From IMG/VR virus record IMGVR_UViG_3300045988_002477: a DNA stretch of 6,035 nucleotides, one strand, 5' to 3'. The notes beneath the pieces were generated by a model. That model saw only the letters and a program-made list of their open reading frames with translations, was not told the origin of the DNA and did not search any database. The DNA comes from a virus. Numbering within the stretch: position 1 is the first letter of the stretch; the number at the start of each line of letters is the position of its first letter. Position numbers and translations under genes: made by a program. This document shows positions 1,033 to 5,984 of this stretch, one piece after another.

Positions 1033-1425
1033 TTATACCCCCTTTCTGTATTTGTTAATGCGCGTATCAAAATGCACCCAACTGCTTTCTACGATGATTC
1101 CGCAGGAATCGCTTGGTACTATTTTGTTTAGCGTTTTTGCAATTTCTTTTGGTGTCATGTCTTTTACTATGATGTCTACAGCGCATCCCCTCATGTGGTA
1201 GCTGTACTTTGCACCGTTGACTTTTTTGTTGTGTTCTGGCGTCCGGTATCCGCTTGTTATGATTATCGGTTTATCAATTGTCTTTCGCAGAATTTCCAGT
1301 AGGCCTACCAGATAGTTATCCACGAATACTATTGGACTGCCGTCTTTGCAGGCAAACTCTTTTACCTTGAAGTGTTTTGTTATTTCTATGTTTCCTTGTT
1401 CTGGTACGACGTATGATTTAATCAT
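1033..1425 (-). CDS. Peptidase M15 family (M15A / Peptidase_M15_3-like, zinc D-Ala-D-Ala carboxypeptidase fold) peptidoglycan hydrolase; putative endolysin
   Basis: ATG at 1425 is preceded by AAGGAG with 6-nt spacing. The family motifs are present: FKVKEFACKDG near the N-terminus, SGYRTPEHN, the zinc ligands H77 and D84 in SYHMRGCAVD, and H118 in WVHFD. No N-terminal signal peptide or TM segment is visible. Confidence 0.88.
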   Translation of the reverse strand: MIKSYVVPEQGNIEITKHFKVKEFACKDGSPIVFVDNYLVGLLEILRKTIDKPIIITSGYRTPEHNKKVNGAKYSYHMRGCAVDIIVKDMTPKEIAKTLNKIVPSDSCGIIVESSWVHFDTRINKYRKGV

Positions 1426-1870: not shown

Positions 1871-2860
1871 TCAAACTTTCGGTTCACGCCACTTTTGCCT
1901 TAACTTGTCTTTTTCTTTCTGAATGTTGAGGTATGTTTCATAATCCACGCTGGTGCTTTGTTCGAGGTTGATTAAACTTTGTACTGCGCTCCGTCTGCGT
2001 CTGGCTCTAACCTCTCTCAGCTCGTCAGAATGTGCCTTAAAATAGCTTTCAGTGTCTTGGTTGGTATCTTTATCGATGATTTTGTCAAAATAGCGTGGTG
2101 GCCTTTTCTCGCGGCCTCCTGCACAGATGATGCTGTCTGTTTTTAAGATTTCATCTTTGTGCTCGTTCAGATACTTTTCTCCGATGCCTTTTGACATGAT
2201 TCTGAACTCTGGCTCTCTGCCCTGCATCCAGTATTTTACGCTTTCTTCTGCACCAATTGCTTTTTTGTTCACGTATTGTGCTACGTATGCATAGCTGCCT
2301 GGTTGTGCTGGTGAAAAGTCAATCATGCCTTTCCCCCAGATTTTTTCTAGCCATTCGCTTTTAAAATAGCTGTTGCCCTTTTGGTTCTTATACCATTGAG
2401 CATCCGGTGGCTTTAGCCCGAAAATAATCGCATGGTAGTGCGGCCTTTTTGTTCTGTCCCCATATTCAGCAGCTAGGAAATATTTTATTGGTTTCTTGTA
2501 TGCTTTTCGTAGACGTTTTAAAAATAGCTGCACGTCTCGCTTGCTTACTGTCTGACTTTGAATGCTTCTGTAGCCTTTGAGGATTTCTCCGTATGGAATA
2601 TGCTCATCGTCATACGTTAGTGTCAGAAAGATTACATCTTCCCATTCTTTTGCTTCTAGCTCAATTCTGGTTGCCCATTGGTCAGCCATTTGTTTTCGGC
2701 AATACTCGCATTTACCGCATGGTAATAGCGCGAATTTTCCTTTTTTGACACCGTCCATGATGTCCGTTTGCAGCCCTTGCTTTGATAGGTTTTCCAGACT
2801 TCCCCATAACTGTGGTTTTTTCGTGTCCATCTGAAATACTAATGGTTTTGTACATGGCAT
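1871..2860 (-). CDS. Rolling-circle replication initiation protein (Microviridae VP4 / phiX174 protein A analogue, HUH endonuclease)
   Basis: The 329-aa protein has an N-terminal MPCTKPL and the LPCGKCEYCR cysteine cluster typical of gokushovirus VP4. RCR motif I is FLTLTY (78-83), motif II is PHYHAIIFG (140-148), and motif III is the tyrosine pair in YAYVAQYVNKK (190-200). Confidence 0.95.
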   Translation of the reverse strand: MPCTKPLVFQMDTKKPQLWGSLENLSKQGLQTDIMDGVKKGKFALLPCGKCEYCRKQMADQWATRIELEAKEWEDVIFLTLTYDDEHIPYGEILKGYRSIQSQTVSKRDVQLFLKRLRKAYKKPIKYFLAAEYGDRTKRPHYHAIIFGLKPPDAQWYKNQKGNSYFKSEWLEKIWGKGMIDFSPAQPGSYAYVAQYVNKKAIGAEESVKYWMQGREPEFRIMSKGIGEKYLNEHKDEILKTDSIICAGGREKRPPRYFDKIIDKDTNQDTESYFKAHSDELREVRARRRRSAVQSLINLEQSTSVDYETYLNIQKEKDKLRQKWREPKV

Positions 2861-2900: not shown

Positions 2901-2934
2901 TTGACACCTCGCTTTCTATTATATTAACTTGTTG

Positions 2935-2952
2935 TAGTAGTAGTAGTAGTAG
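2935..2952. repeat. (TAG)6 trinucleotide microsatellite, (CTA)6 on the coding strand
   Basis: Direct reading shows tagtagtagtagtagtag immediately abutting the first TGTTGAA repeat. It occupies the position where a -35 element for the TATAAT at 2918-2923 would lie. Confidence 0.95.
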
Positions 2953-3119
2953 TGTTGAAACTGTTGAAAACTCGTTTTTTTAACGTTGCTATGTTTATTT
3001 ATTGCTTTTTTGCCTGTTGAAAATTTTGTTGAAAACTTGTTGAATTGTTGAAAGTTCGTCATTATGACGGATTTTGTTGTGCACTTTTGTGTTGAAAACC
3101 TGTTGAAAGTGTTGAAAAC
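2953..3119 (+). repeat. Iteron-like array of nine same-orientation copies of TGTTGAA(A)(A)(C) in three clusters
   Basis: The copies are at 2953-2961 TGTTGAAAC, 2962-2971 TGTTGAAAAC, 3015-3024 TGTTGAAAAT, 3027-3036 TGTTGAAAAC, 3038-3045 TGTTGAAT, 3046-3054 TGTTGAAAG, 3090-3099 TGTTGAAAAC, 3101-3109 TGTTGAAAG and 3110-3119 TGTTGAAAAC. A degenerate TGTTGTG lies at 3075-3081. Spacing within a cluster is 8-12 nt, about one helical turn. Confidence 0.9.
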
Positions 3120-3133
3120 TTAAGTTTTCCACA
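3114..3133. promoter_or_regulatory. 16-nt perfect palindrome GAAAACTTAAGTTTTC (3114-3129) overlapping a DnaA-box match TTTTCCACA (3125-3133)
   Basis: The palindrome was read directly and is formed by the last iteron plus an inverted half-copy. TTTTCCACA fits the relaxed DnaA-box consensus TT(A/T)TNCACA at 9/9 positions. Confidence 0.6.
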
Positions 3134-3191
3134 TAGGATGCTCCTGACATAAATGTCGTGAGCATCTGACCACAGTATATATTTTGAGCTA

Positions 3192-3226
3192 GCACGCGCG
3201 CGCGCGCTTCGCGTGCGTGCGTGCAC
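3192..3226. repeat. Alternating purine-pyrimidine tract: GCAC(GC)6 - TTC - (GCGT)3GCAC; an imperfect palindrome with Z-DNA potential
   Basis: There are two 16-nt perfectly alternating R-Y runs (3192-3207 and 3211-3226). On the displayed strand they fold into 13 pairs, including three G-T wobbles, with a 3-nt loop. On the complementary strand those wobbles become A-C mismatches. Confidence 0.8.
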
Positions 3227-3259
3227 TTTGCCTTATATGCTGTTTGCACTTTAGCCACA

Positions 3260-3294
3260 GCGACAGTCCCCCCGCGTAGGGGGGGCGTTGTCGC
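3260..3294. repeat. Hairpin A: GCGACAG-T-CCCCCC / loop GCGTA / GGGGGG(G)-C-(GT bulge)-TGTCGC
   Basis: C6 (3268-3273) pairs with G6-7 (3279-3285), and 3260-3266 pairs with 3286 plus 3289-3294 around a 2-nt bulge. The left arm 3259-3268 can alternatively pair with 3359-3368 (GACTGTCGCT) as a perfect 10-bp long-range helix. Confidence 0.75.
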
Positions 3295-3340
3295 AAGGGG
3301 GGGACGAAAAACAGCGGCAATGTTTTTCGTCCCCCCTTGC
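3293..3340. repeat. Hairpin B: 16-bp perfect stem (GGGGGGACGAAAAACA / TGTTTTTCGTCCCCCC) with the 7-nt loop GCGGCAA; extendable to 20 bp with one bulged G
   Basis: 3298-3313 is the exact reverse complement of 3321-3336. With G3297 bulged, 3293-3296 also pairs with 3337-3340. Confidence 0.9.
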
Positions 3341-3417
3341 TTTATATGATTATGTTTTGACTGTCGCTTGTCTGGTGCCCCTGTGTTGGGGAACCTTAGC
3401 TTTGCGCGGAGGGGTTT

Positions 3418-4254
3418 TTAATTTCCTCTGTATGCGTTGAATGCGTCCATGTTTGGCATGATTGGCACTCTTTGGTTGTATTTTTTGAAGTTTCCTGCTG
3501 TTTCTTTGGTTGCTTTTTTGGCTTTTTCACCCGCTTTTGCAAGTCCTGAGCCTAACTTGTTAGCTGCATAGCTGTATTGTTGTACCTGTTTTGCGCTTGA
3601 GCTTGCTAGCTCGCTTGCTGACTGTTCCCAGGTTTTTGCAGCCTTATATTGTTTTGCGCTGGTACTCTGCTTTGCTAGCTGTAAGTATTTGTCCGCTAGT
3701 TCTGCCGTGTTGTTGCCGTATTCGTACATTGCCGATACACTTGCTGCTTGTGCGCTCTGTTGGTTATAACTTTGGCTTCCGATGTTTGCAGATGCTCCGC
3801 TTGTTGAGCTTGTCGCTCCGTTGGTTGCCGCTAGAATAGGGTTGATGCCAGCTGCAATCATGTCTTTTACAGTATCTTGATAGGCTGTTCCCCGCATTTC
3901 TTTTTGGAAAGCTCTTTCAGCTGCTGCTTCTGCGCTGTTGTATTTCTTGGCGCTTGCTTGGCTTCCTGCGTTTGCGAGGTTGCTTAATAGTCCGCTCATC
4001 ATTTGCAGTGCGTTTGCGGTGTTTACGCTGTTTTGATTTCCGAACATTGTGACGCCTGTTGGTGTACTAATTTGCGTTGCACCAATCTGCTGCGGTGCCG
4101 TTAAGCTTCCGGTTGTGCTCTCGCTACCTGTGCTGGTCTCGTTGCCTGATCCTTGGCTGTTTTTGGCGCTGCTCTGGTTGCTGCTTGTTGCGATGTTGGT
4201 TAACATGCCTAGTCCTTGCATGATGTACGGTAGTAACTGTAACAATGTCTCCAT
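3418..4254 (-). CDS. DNA pilot / minor capsid protein (Microviridae VP2, phiX174 protein H analogue)
   Basis: The 278-aa protein has S/T/Q/N/A-rich low-complexity flanks around the conserved core YNSAEAAAERAFQKEMRGTAYQDTVKDMIAAGINPILA, which is characteristic of microvirus VP2. It lies directly downstream of VP1. Confidence 0.9.
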   Translation of the reverse strand: METLLQLLPYIMQGLGMLTNIATSSNQSSAKNSQGSGNETSTGSESTTGSLTAPQQIGATQISTPTGVTMFGNQNSVNTANALQMMSGLLSNLANAGSQASAKKYNSAEAAAERAFQKEMRGTAYQDTVKDMIAAGINPILAATNGATSSTSGASANIGSQSYNQQSAQAASVSAMYEYGNNTAELADKYLQLAKQSTSAKQYKAAKTWEQSASELASSSAKQVQQYSYAANKLGSGLAKAGEKAKKATKETAGNFKKYNQRVPIMPNMDAFNAYRGN

Positions 4255-4292: not shown

Positions 4293-5984
4293 TTAGATTC
4301 TCTCGATGCCGGGAATACTGTAGATAGGCATCTCCCGGAACCACTCTTCGCTGAAATAGAAATCACACAAGAACTGATGTGATACGTTGCTTGTTACTGC
4401 AATCGTCCTGTCGATGTTCTCTGTTCCTTCTTGAATCCATTCCGCCGATAGTCGCGGCAGAGTGGTATAGTGGTCCGCATAGTGCCATGCGTCCAGACTT
4501 GTTGCGAAGTTTGACCTCATTTCTCCGGTTACGTAAGAAGGCTTGTAGCGGTAGTCCGCCCACGCCTCTTGGTACCCAAAGATTTCGTTATCTTCTGACG
4601 TGCCTTGTGCATAGATTTCACGGTTGTATACCGGCTGTTCGCCCAGTGCTGCCAATCGCGGGTCGTAGTATGTGAATCGCCCGCCTCGTGTCCACTTGGT
4701 CGCAAGTCCCTGCTGGTAGCTGTGTTCTACTCGTACCACTGCCAGACCGATGATGTAGCCGTATTCGGTCGCTGCATAGTCAACCATCTGTTTGCTGCAC
4801 GTGGTCAGGCTGTACGCTGCGGTATTGCCCAGTGCCTGCCCGGTTGTCGTGTCCGTCTGGCTTGTCTGTACGACCTGATTAACGTTGATGGCGATACGCT
4901 GTCCGCCGATGTACTCGGGAATCTGCAGACGGCTGTCCGGACTTGTTACGCCCCACGTACCACTCAGGAATTCACGGTATCGCGTGCCGTTTCGTGCATC
5001 AGCCTCGAAGATGTGCTGCAGTGCAATGCTCATTCGGAGGTCTGCAATGCTGATTGCCGTTACGTTGTTCAGGTTGGCGTATAGGTTGCCTGTTAGGATG
5101 TTGCCGCCGTCTGGCTGAGTTGTTGCTCCGTTGGTGTCTAAGCCTGCCAGTTCTACCGCCGGGTATCCTGGTTGTGTATTCTGGTAATGCCGGTTGAAGG
5201 CTCGCCCTGCTCCTGCTCCCTTGCCGTTTAACCAGATGTCGGTGTCCATGTCGAATGCTTCTACTTTGCCGGTAACTTCGTTGTAGTTTCCCATGACGAC
5301 TGGTGCGTCACCTGTCAGGTTGATTTCCACAGGGTCAGATTTCAACGGCGACGGCATACAGGACGTGAAGTAGTCGTGGAACTTTCCCGCCTTTGCCGGT
5401 TTCATTGCGTATAACCACGCTGAATCGTTTGCCGTGGTATTTTCTGGTGCGTTTACTACCTTTCCGGCAATGGATGCCGGATTCGTAGATGATCCCCCTT
5501 TATCCGTTTTGTTATAGCCCAGCATCAACGGTGCTTCTAGGTTTTCGTCTCGAAACCATTCGTTGTAAATCATTGCGTATGCGCGTGCTGGCAGTGCGTT
5601 GACTTTGATTTTGTTTTTCACCTCGGTCGGCAGTCCAAAATAGTCGCCGATGCTGCCATTAGCTAGACCGCTTGTGCCGCCGATTTCACAACTTGGCGTG
5701 CTGTATTCAGTCTTTTCCGCCCAGTAATTGGTGTCATTCTCACCGAACATATTTTCGAAATGTTCCCACAGCAGACGTGTGGGCACAAAGAAGAAATATG
5801 TGTCCATATAGCAGTTATCCATGATAGGATAGATAGGAGTGCTCATGCGGATAAGCCCGTTCAAGCGCACCCGTGCCGTATCACCCGGAAGTACCTCGTC
5901 GAGGTAGATAGGTACCAGTTCGCCTTCGTTGATGGTCGTCAAGAGCTGGTGACTTCGGTCAAATTTGCTTCGTGGTCGTTGCAT
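4293..5984 (-). CDS. Major capsid protein (Microviridae VP1 / phiX174 protein F family)
   Basis: The 563-aa protein begins MQRPRSKFDRSHQLLTTINEGELVPIYLDEVLPGDT...FFFVPTRLLW, the hallmark N-terminal signature of microvirus major capsid proteins. Its size is typical for gokushovirus-like VP1. The start codon lies inside the terminal repeat (5984 = 68). No SD is visible within 25 nt of the ATG. Confidence 0.97.
   Translation of the reverse strand: MQRPRSKFDRSHQLLTTINEGELVPIYLDEVLPGDTARVRLNGLIRMSTPIYPIMDNCYMDTYFFFVPTRLLWEHFENMFGENDTNYWAEKTEYSTPSCEIGGTSGLANGSIGDYFGLPTEVKNKIKVNALPARAYAMIYNEWFRDENLEAPLMLGYNKTDKGGSSTNPASIAGKVVNAPENTTANDSAWLYAMKPAKAGKFHDYFTSCMPSPLKSDPVEINLTGDAPVVMGNYNEVTGKVEAFDMDTDIWLNGKGAGAGRAFNRHYQNTQPGYPAVELAGLDTNGATTQPDGGNILTGNLYANLNNVTAISIADLRMSIALQHIFEADARNGTRYREFLSGTWGVTSPDSRLQIPEYIGGQRIAINVNQVVQTSQTDTTTGQALGNTAAYSLTTCSKQMVDYAATEYGYIIGLAVVRVEHSYQQGLATKWTRGGRFTYYDPRLAALGEQPVYNREIYAQGTSEDNEIFGYQEAWADYRYKPSYVTGEMRSNFATSLDAWHYADHYTTLPRLSAEWIQEGTENIDRTIAVTSNVSHQFLCDFYFSEEWFREMPIYSIPGIERI

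Follow-up and report, generated by a model that had tools for sequence, protein, structure and literature searches.

The non-coding region upstream of the replication gene of this gokushovirus carries a cassette of ~220 bp (about 2912-3133) that is co-linear with the dnaA-dnaN origin region of Ruminococcus and Oscillospiraceae. Judged by its architecture, the cassette is very probably a DnaA-binding, oriC-like element, and it probably acts as a module which, on the replicative form, binds the DnaA of the host and opens the DNA for host-driven replication or maintenance. The original prediction, made from the window (the whole 6,035-nt stretch of viral DNA analyzed here), had noted an array of short repeats and offered several readings of it: a binding platform for a host initiator of the DnaA type, Rep-binding iterons of a viral origin, or a platform for Spo0A. 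The first reading is strongly supported, as the repeats turn out to be part of the oriC-like module; the iterons and the Spo0A sites did not hold up.

The repeat array and its surroundings

The window is a complete microvirus of the gokushovirus type, with every gene on the minus strand (Table 1), and its nearest GenBank relatives are human-gut gokushoviruses with ~84% nucleotide identity. A motif count confirmed nine copies of TGTTGAA, four of them extended to the full 10-mer TGTTGAAAAC (2962, 3027, 3090 and 3110), at the positions and with the roughly helical-turn spacing originally described. Start to start, the repeats are 9 nt apart in the first cluster, 12, 11 and 8 nt apart in the second, and 11 and 9 nt apart in the third. 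All nine copies are on the plus strand inside 2953-3116, and the heptamer is absent from the rest of the 6035 nt; because the genes are on the minus strand, the sense strand of the repeats reads TTCAACA. The array had also been called non-random, and shuffling agrees: dinucleotide shuffles contained the heptamer 1.09 times on average and 6 times at most, and 0/200 reached nine.

Table 1. Parts of the cassette and genes of the window, with positions counted from the first nucleotide of the window.
Feature	Position	Strand	Remarks
AT-rich low-stability segment, DUE-like	2912..2934		separated from the boxes by the trios
-10-like TATAAT	2918-2923	- (sense)	inside the AT-rich stretch
AACTTGTTG 9-mer	2926..2934	+	most conserved 9-mer of the cassette in phages
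Six TAG triplets (putative DnaA-trios)	2935..2952	+	abut the first repeat
Cluster I, tandem co-oriented box pair TGTTGAAAC + TGTTGAAAA	2953..2970	+	starts 2953, 2962; 9 bp start to start
Cluster II, four boxes	3015..3054	+	starts 3015, 3027, 3038, 3046
Cluster III, three boxes	3090..3118	+	starts 3090, 3101, 3110
Inverted relaxed canonical DnaA box TTTTCCACA	3125..3133	-	fits TTWTNCACA
M15 peptidase/endolysin	1425..1033	-	
VP4 replication initiation protein (HUH Rep)	1871..2860	-	Pfam REP_ORF2-G2P 2e-20; PHROG 942 3e-106
Non-coding gap, 557 nt	between VP2 and VP4/Rep, upstream of rep		houses the repeats
VP2 pilot protein	4254..3418	-	
VP1 capsid	5984..4293	-	Pfam Phage_F 3e-147
86-aa ORF		-	among the minus-strand genes
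VP5 and VP3		-	

The TAG triplets, the AT-rich stretch, the inverted TTTTCCACA and the minus-strand orientation of the genes were context absent from the original prediction. Taken together with the repeats, they give a cassette in the order AT-rich stretch, TAG trios, tandem box pair, two box clusters and inverted box, with the VP4 gene flanking its AT-rich end. By nearest-neighbour calculation, the 40-nt segment 2912-2951 is the second least stable duplex of the genome (dG of -41.4 vs a mean of -54.2, sd 4.3). By shuffling, TAGTAGTAG has an expected mean of 0.01. The box variant used by the repeats, TGTTGAAAA (= TTTTCAACA), is a putative DnaA box with 1 mismatch, at a conserved position, to the relaxed E. 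coli consensus TTWTNCACA, and the last repeat and the inverted TTTTCCACA together make a 12-nt palindrome (3110-3121 / 3122-3133). Nothing in the window matched Rfam at E<=1.

Resemblance to the basal unwinding system

The order of these parts resembles the basal unwinding system (BUS) known from Firmicutes, exemplified by incC of B. subtilis and oriC2 of C. difficile (Richardson 2016/2019; Pelliciari 2021, 2023; PMC8287927, PMC10721633, PMC7561715). A BUS consists of a DnaA box, usually in a co-oriented tandem pair, with a spacer of 0-16 bp that is often G/C-rich (PMC8287927, PMC10721633, PMC7561715), at least three trios with a central A, 3'-GAT-5' (= TAG), on the 5' tail (PMC8287927, PMC10721633), and an AT-rich region past the trios (PMC8287927, PMC10721633, PMC7561715). 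Its boxes are judged against a species-specific motif, with at most 2 mismatches allowed in the better box and at most 4 in the second (PMC8287927). Strand separation in a BUS depends on DnaA-ATP and needs both the boxes and the trios.

Each of these elements has a counterpart in the window. TGTTGAAAA has 1 mismatch to TTWTNCACA and 2 to TTATCCACA; the boxes at 2953-2961 and 2962-2970 form a tandem pair in the same orientation; the six TAG triplets directly adjoin the proximal box (0 bp) and lie 9 bp away from the better one; and the AT-rich region (2912-2934) lies beyond the trios. In B. subtilis, incC reads TTATCCACA-AATCCACA-GGCC-CTACTATTACTTCTACTA-AT-rich, with the same polarity as the window. 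What differs is the location, as a BUS sits in a chromosomal origin beside dnaA/dnaN and the cassette sits between VP2 and VP4 of a microvirus; thus, the cassette would work like, or mimic, an oriC BUS and is not a chromosomal origin.

Trio and box polarity and spacing are like those in the origins of the inferred host clade described below, yet here they occur in a module of a 6-kb single-stranded DNA genome and not beside dnaA. In the hosts and in the other phage group, GGGG or GGGAG separates the trios from the boxes; the window has no such G-rich spacer. Origins of the Bacillus type usually depend on a second box cluster, upstream of dnaA, and on DnaD and DnaB as well; the phage cassettes have no such second cluster, and they have the invariant AACTTGTTG in addition. 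This 9-mer, the most conserved in the cassette and specific to the phages, is not accounted for by the oriC-like model.

Co-linearity with the origins of Ruminococcus and Oscillospiraceae

One genome per species, for 185,579 species, was scanned with a pattern of three adjacent heptamers. The scan returned many unrelated tandem repeats and, in addition, loci of Oscillospiraceae, Ruminococcus and Clostridiales with mixed clusters of TGTTGAAAA and TGTGGAAAA; tblastn with the phage proteins gave no match to phage genes in these bacterial loci. In four of them (L318, L367, L335 and L340), the cluster lies between dnaA and dnaN (Pfam Bac_DnaA and DNA_pol3_beta), with rnpA and yidC nearby, and a dnaA-dnaN spacer in such a neighbourhood is the classical Firmicute origin region. 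Smaller clusters in further Ruminococcaceae/Oscillospiraceae loci (L332, L333, L306, L319, L363, L327 and L368) do not adjoin dnaA. A locus with canonical boxes, L427, encodes merely a short DnaA-domain-IV-like fragment. The host genomes are metagenome-assembled.

The origin regions repeat the order of the phage cassette. In L318 it is an AT-rich stretch, TAGTAGTAGTAGTAG, GGGG and TGTTGAAAC TGTTGAAAAC, and in L367 it is ctatataatataaatatataatataaatacag, TAGTAGTAATAG, GGGG and TGTTGAAAC TGTTGAAAAC. The 19-mer box pair of both loci, TGTTGAAACTGTTGAAAAC, is identical to window positions 2953-2971, and the corresponding pair in L335 and in L521, a locus of Ruminococcus sp., is TGTTGAAACTGTGGAAAA. 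An AT-rich stretch stands at the matching position in the host oriC loci. In L318, L367, L335, L309 and L521, the sequence preceding the trios lacks AACTTGTTG. Counted from the first box, the phage boxes start at 0, 9, 62, 74, 85, 93, 137, 148 and 157, with the inverted TTTTCCACA at 172; those of L318 start at 0, 9, 73, 84, 131, 142 and 153, and its inverted boxes are at 57 and at 171, where the sequence is again TTTTCCACA.

A profile HMM built from 28 phage cassettes had dnaA-dnaN spacers as its three best matches, with E-values of 3.6e-16, 8e-15 and 9.6e-13. The space searched, to which these E-values refer, had been selected beforehand and comprised 843 kb of genome loci containing the motif. 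All three alignments begin at the trios and remain co-linear over ~180-190 model positions.

Because the first four host loci had been picked out by the motif, the argument from them is circular. Three loci (L521, L522 and L523) lessen this concern: they were chosen solely by the similarity of their DnaA protein to that of L318 (85%, 68% and 63% identity), and the dnaA-dnaN spacer of each has a run of trios, a run of G and a pair of boxes. In L521 (Ruminococcus sp.), the sequence is TAGTAGTAGTAG GGGG TGTTGAAAC TGTGGAAAAC, and the motif occurs 13 times in 620 nt vs 5 times in the other 6734 nt. TGTTGAAAA dominates the dnaA-dnaN origin regions of uncultured Ruminococcus/Oscillospiraceae.

The DnaA proteins of this clade have a signature of their own. 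Where DnaA of E. coli, B. subtilis and Aquifex has DHTT..H, all four host proteins and 118 of their 120 closest relatives (Ruminococcus sp., Oscillospiraceae or Clostridiales, where named) have DHST..Y; the substitutions are T435 to S and H439 to Y, and the position equivalent to P423 is variable. P423, T435 and H439 are among the residues of DnaA that make base-specific contacts (PMC7561715). We consider these changes consistent with a shifted box preference in the host clade. The match between cassette and origins suggests that Ruminococcus-like Oscillospiraceae are the hosts of these phages. The M15 endolysin gives no host information, since its 120 best homologues are all on contigs of at most 8.6 kb.

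Conservation and distribution of the cassette among phages

The array region (~2917-3117) matches 34 gut gokushoviruses in GenBank at 71-93% identity, which come from independent studies and from human, pig, mink, raccoon, monkey and dog faeces. In many array-bearing relatives, the proteins VP1 and VP4 share only 35-45% identity with their counterparts in the window. Viral contigs were scanned with the three-heptamer pattern (a two-heptamer pattern was unspecific and gave mostly chance matches), and about 90 microvirus-sized genomes from IMG/VR and GenBank carry 5-12 strand-specific copies of TGTTGAA. A search of related Microviridae for co-varying arrays had been suggested with the original prediction; the array is indeed kept, in these about 90 genomes, but it does not co-vary with Rep. 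The core spacing common to array-bearing phages is 12, 11, 8, ~44-56, 11, 9, (9), and the 12, 11, 8 of cluster II is kept in both phage groups.

The relatives align as one cassette of ~220-250 nt. Its first half consists of the AT-rich stretch, AACTTGTTG, (TAG)3-6, an optional G-rich spacer and the box pair; its second half consists of a ~45-nt spacer, four boxes, a ~44-nt spacer and three or four boxes. Across 28 non-redundant cassettes, majority-base conservation is 97% in AACTTGTTG, 93% in the boxes and 86% in the trios, compared with 68% in the other columns. In 88 of 97 arrays, the box pair is flanked by three or more trios; the three nearest the boxes are invariably TAG, and variation (TCG, GAG) is seen in those farther away. 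Some relatives have TGTGGAAAA in equivalent slots, such as the first of cluster III. The palindrome of TTTTCCACA with the last repeat is confined to some members of the phage group to which the window belongs.

The cassette occurs in both orientations. In 55 genomes it lies, as in the window, between VP2 and VP4, upstream of VP4, with its boxes antisense; in 33 it lies downstream of VP4 with its boxes on the sense strand; and one further genome is exceptional. The AT-rich end faces VP4 in 88/89 genomes, a rule that rests on just two or three independent rearrangements. Composition at 4-fold sites of the sense strand is the same in both orientation classes (A 0.43, C 0.21, G 0.23, T 0.125); therefore, the strand asymmetry tracks the genes and not the cassette. 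A switch of the packaged strand along with cassette inversion was considered, and finds no support in this composition. Because the cassette is non-coding, and because both its orientation and its side of the gene vary, it most simply acts on duplex DNA.

Not all gokushoviruses have the cassette. Among 66 gokushovirus loci chosen by VP1 similarity, 52 contained no TGTTGAA array, and these 52 had neither another clustered 7-mer nor a cluster of canonical DnaA boxes. The array-less phages include some whose VP1 resembles that of the window more (51-55% identity) than does the VP1 of the group with the downstream cassette. With so many gokushoviruses lacking it, the cassette is accessory and not a universal rolling-circle origin or an essential viral origin. 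Cassette and M15 endolysin were both present in 77 genomes, both absent from 52 and discordant in 15 and 4, counts drawn from a biased sample of phylogenetically non-independent genomes. Since phage-specific spacers and AACTTGTTG are common to the cassettes and absent from the hosts, the cassette appears to have been acquired once and to have moved between phage lineages. A search of viral contigs for the canonical module TAGTAGTAG-N0-8-TGTGGATAA found modules resembling an origin in several large contigs, and no convincing microvirus.

Proposed function and alternative explanations

We propose that host DnaA-ATP would bind the boxes on the double-stranded replicative form and that the bound DnaA would oligomerise onto the trio strand, melting the adjacent AT-rich DNA. 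The opened DNA would then let the host helicase and replisome load. The outcome could be a theta-type amplification independent of Rep, or plasmid-like maintenance, in either case tied to the initiation potential of the host, and the single strands to be packaged would still come from the VP4 Rep. Host DnaA would inevitably be titrated as a side effect. We infer the binding of DnaA, the unwinding and the firing of the origin from sequence, and we are less confident of firing than of binding: with regard to the claim that the cassette fires as, or assists, a replication origin, we are evenly divided. More tentatively, and with the balance somewhat against it, these phages may be dual-origin elements, in which the replicative form replicates or persists as a DnaA-dependent mini-chromosome in the Gram-positive-type Ruminococcus/Oscillospiraceae by means of an unwinding module captured from the host oriC, and Rep serves only for packaging strands.

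The best of the alternatives, though in our view an unlikely one, is that the cassette binds host DnaA without firing as an origin. It could be a sink, with the many copies of the replicative form, each with about ten boxes, titrating DnaA-ATP and stopping host initiation, or it could be a regulator, with bound DnaA controlling phage transcription, for example from the -10-like element pointing at VP4. The evidence for DnaA binding is shared between this explanation and ours, and an accessory, patchily distributed cassette is what would be expected of a host-manipulation module. However, titration needs boxes only, and the trios, the juxtaposition of boxes and trios, and the AT-rich stretch are conserved too. 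The conservation of the trios, of their contact with the box pair and of the neighbouring low-stability stretch suggests that the selected activity includes DNA opening and not binding alone. As to a regulator, TATAAT does stand on the sense strand within the AT-rich stretch, but a scan for sigma-70 promoters found 1 site vs 0.8 expected, so none above chance, and the placement of the cassette in 33 genomes, downstream and inverted, is incompatible with a fixed operator at the VP4 promoter.

A second alternative, to which we give a slim chance, is DnaA-assisted initiation of rolling-circle replication, in which melting would make a nick site accessible to the HUH Rep in single-stranded form. 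AACTTGTTG is the candidate for this site: it is the most conserved part of the cassette (97%), is missing from host origins, and has AACTTG in common with the cleavage decamer of phiX174, CAACTTG|ATA. The catalytic motif of the window's Rep, YVAQYVNKK, is close to the phiX174 motif, and the AT-rich end is directed toward VP4 in 88/89 genomes. Against this explanation, an inverted cassette implies opposite packaged strands, yet the strong bias at 4-fold sites is identical in the two groups. Many gokushoviruses with related Reps have no cassette, and the phiX-like origin 17-mer was not found in the window when up to 3 mismatches were allowed.

We think it very improbable that the array is a platform of 0A boxes through which Spo0A silences the phage in sporulating hosts, as in phi29, a function that could coexist with the oriC-like module. 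TGTTGAA differs from TGTCGAA at a single position, many of the Oscillospiraceae form spores, and 0A boxes overlap the DnaA boxes of oriC in Bacillus; if the host origin were regulated in this way, its mimic would be too. Among the one-substitution variants accompanying 630 exact boxes in 80 arrays, however, TGTCGAA was never seen (0 cases), and the commonest true variant was TGTGGAA, the canonical DnaA core (22 cases). Spo0A binding also leaves the trios and the AT-rich stretch unexplained.

The reading of the repeats as Rep-binding iterons of a viral origin, like those of CRESS-DNA viruses, RCR plasmids and theta plasmids, which headed the original prediction, drew on their being direct repeats with roughly helical spacing beside the rep gene, and it now has very little to commend it. 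Iterons co-vary with their Rep, but in these phages Reps that are 35-40% identical go with one heptamer, one spacing and even shared spacers, and the same array is found in bacterial chromosomal origins that have no phage genes. Beside the array there is no stem-loop with a nick site. Iterons would be expected in a fixed orientation, whereas the cassette occurs both ways (55 vs 33 genomes) with the strand bias following the genes.

Finally, the window has an 87-aa ORF (2995..3258, minus strand) that extends over most of the array, but the ideas that the repeats are coding repeats of this ORF, or a product of chance or assembly, can practically be set aside. Of 80 arrays, 29 have no open frame at all, and no frame stays open consistently; in 33 genomes the array runs the other way relative to the genes; and the ORF has no Pfam or PHROG match. 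The conserved 87-aa ORF that would have counted against the original prediction is thus not seen. The array recurs in 34 GenBank genomes of independent studies and about 90 IMG/VR contigs.

Implications and comparison with known systems

If host DnaA does act on the cassette as proposed, microviruses of this kind would have a different mode of replication or persistence, in gokushoviruses that are abundant in the human and animal gut, and a direct line would run from the cell-cycle initiator of the host to the phage. The dual-origin reading, if true, would make this the first oriC-type origin in a single-stranded DNA phage, would offer a non-integrative route to a carrier or pseudolysogenic state, and would be sequence-based evidence of microviruses infecting a major, poorly cultured gut clade. 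For phages that had no host prediction at all, there is now a concrete one, Ruminococcus-like Oscillospiraceae, and we suggest that origin mimicry may be a general signal for host prediction. The comparison also flags a bacterial clade in which a non-canonical DnaA box, TTTTCAACA, goes with a DnaA that has DHST..Y instead of DHTT..H; the use of TGTTGAAAA rather than TGTGGATAA alongside this signature bears on the evolution of DnaA-box specificity. In a full-text literature that includes few subscription journals, we found no description of a DnaA box or oriC in Microviridae or of such a module in gokushoviruses; among the papers listed, none on Microviridae and DnaA dealt with it, as judged by titles and the openings of abstracts, and none described a phage-borne DnaA-trio module.

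Among known systems, the clusters that titrate or inactivate DnaA, namely datA of E. coli and the DnaA-box clusters and inc regions of B. subtilis, are similar in having many close DnaA boxes outside the chromosomal origin, and the cassette would be present in high copy in infected cells. Clusters of the datA type are without trios or an unwinding element, however, and both are conserved in the cassette.

The origin of phiX174 belongs to the same virus family, and the active-site motif of its Rep is closely related. In the textbook account of microvirus replication, which is drawn from phiX174, it is a site of ~30 bp inside gene A that is nicked by Rep, with no role for DnaA. In contrast, the cassette is non-coding, is ~220 bp long, occurs in either orientation and is built from sites of the host-initiator type.

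The A site of the ABC primosome (plasmid R6K; Masai and Arai) is a hairpin in single-stranded DNA whose stem contains a DnaA box. In the window, a 12-bp hairpin with a DnaA box can likewise form between the last repeat and the inverted TTTTCCACA, but the direct repeats of the cassette cannot form duplex boxes in single-stranded DNA.

Theta origins of plasmids and phages, such as P1 oriR, pSC101, F and RK2, have accessory DnaA boxes, and they resemble the cassette in that a mobile element recruits host DnaA through boxes at its origin. In those systems, an initiator encoded by the element acts on its own iterons and DnaA is a helper. The phage of the window, in contrast, encodes no theta-type initiator, and its cassette copies the entire layout of a host origin.

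Results

The M15 endolysin gene and the oriC-like cassette (a DnaA-box module with TAG trios and an AT-rich stretch) co-occur. At a cut-off of E≤1e-10, searching with the endolysin retrieved no fewer than 1200 relatives. None of the contigs bearing the best 120 of these (P0001-P0120) exceeds 8.6 kb and no copy among them is integrated in a long bacterial contig, so the family looks microvirus-specific. Gokushovirus loci fetched by VP1 similarity (L456-L464) carry neither the cassette nor the M15 gene, despite a capsid (VP1 51–55% identical to that of the window) nearer to the window's than is that of the downstream-cassette group, the relatives in which the cassette lies inverted downstream of VP4. 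This implies that the cassette and M15 modules were exchanged or lost along host lines.

In one Ruminococcus/Oscillospiraceae clade, DnaA has DHST..Y in place of DHTT..H, and the residue equivalent to P423 is variable. The comparison covered dnaA-dnaN loci found by motif scan (L318, L367, L335 and L340), loci chosen by DnaA similarity (L521-L523) and DnaA relatives P0121-P0240; among the 120 closest relatives, 118 have the replacement. At the dnaA-dnaN origins of this clade, TTTTCAACA boxes predominate over TTATCCACA boxes. Judged from these sequences, the combination looks like a natural change of DnaA-box specificity.

Features of the window and of other contigs
Feature	Location	Description
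M15 peptidase (endolysin)	window 1033-1425	
Conserved 9-mer	window 2926-2934	AACTTGTTG
Structured block	window 3180-3400	remainder of non-coding gap
Alternating CG palindrome	window 3191-3225	within structured block
Nested G-run/C-run hairpins	window 3259-3368	within structured block
Modules of large IMG/VR contigs		AT-rich, TAGTAGTAG, GGGG, TGTGGATAA TGTGGATAA, then more boxes
BUS-like module, L309	7190-7600	TAATAGTAG-GGG-TGTTGAAAAG-TGTTGAAAAC + additional boxes
Small clusters, L306	1554-1671	TGTTGAAAA/TGTGGAA
Small clusters, L319	4479-4596	TGTTGAAAA/TGTGGAA

Several large "viral" IMG/VR contigs of 16–162 kb (L410/L423/L443, L421, L433, L440, L450 and L451) hold canonical textbook modules, with no dnaA within the stretch examined; the modules might serve as origins of phage-plasmids, or the contigs might be misclassified and contain DNA from host origins. 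The module of L309, a MAG labelled Anaerolineae, resembles the basal unwinding system (BUS) of oriC and is the fourth-best match of the phage-cassette profile (3.8e-10). Its contig ends close by, dnaA was not found within the stretch examined, and the Anaerolineae label may be a binning error. The smaller clusters of the Oscillospiraceae MAGs L306 and L319 lie away from dnaA, adjoining a large ORF and a small ORF (MNKVKVTICGK...). They might represent secondary clusters of DnaA boxes in the host clade, or else promoters under DnaA control.

As single-stranded DNA, the remainder of the window's non-coding gap is very highly structured: its sense (minus) strand folds with a dG of -59.5 kcal/mol, versus -33.7 for shuffles (z = -8.0). 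This block of ~230 nt is missing from most close relatives; it might act as an origin for the complementary strand, as a terminator or as an unwinding barrier. In the downstream-cassette group, an alternating CG/CA tract immediately precedes the AT-rich end of the cassette.

Comparison with phiX174

The top-conserved 9-mer of the cassette (97%) recurs at the equivalent site of some 90 related genomes and was not found in the origins of the inferred hosts. It has the hexamer AACTTG in common with the cleavage decamer of phiX174. At 4-fold degenerate sites of the VP1 and VP4 coding regions, in the window and 90 related genomes, the sense strand shows a strong excess of A (43%) over T (12.5%), identical in both cassette orientations. 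In contrast, the sense strand of phiX174 is T-rich, the opposite skew.
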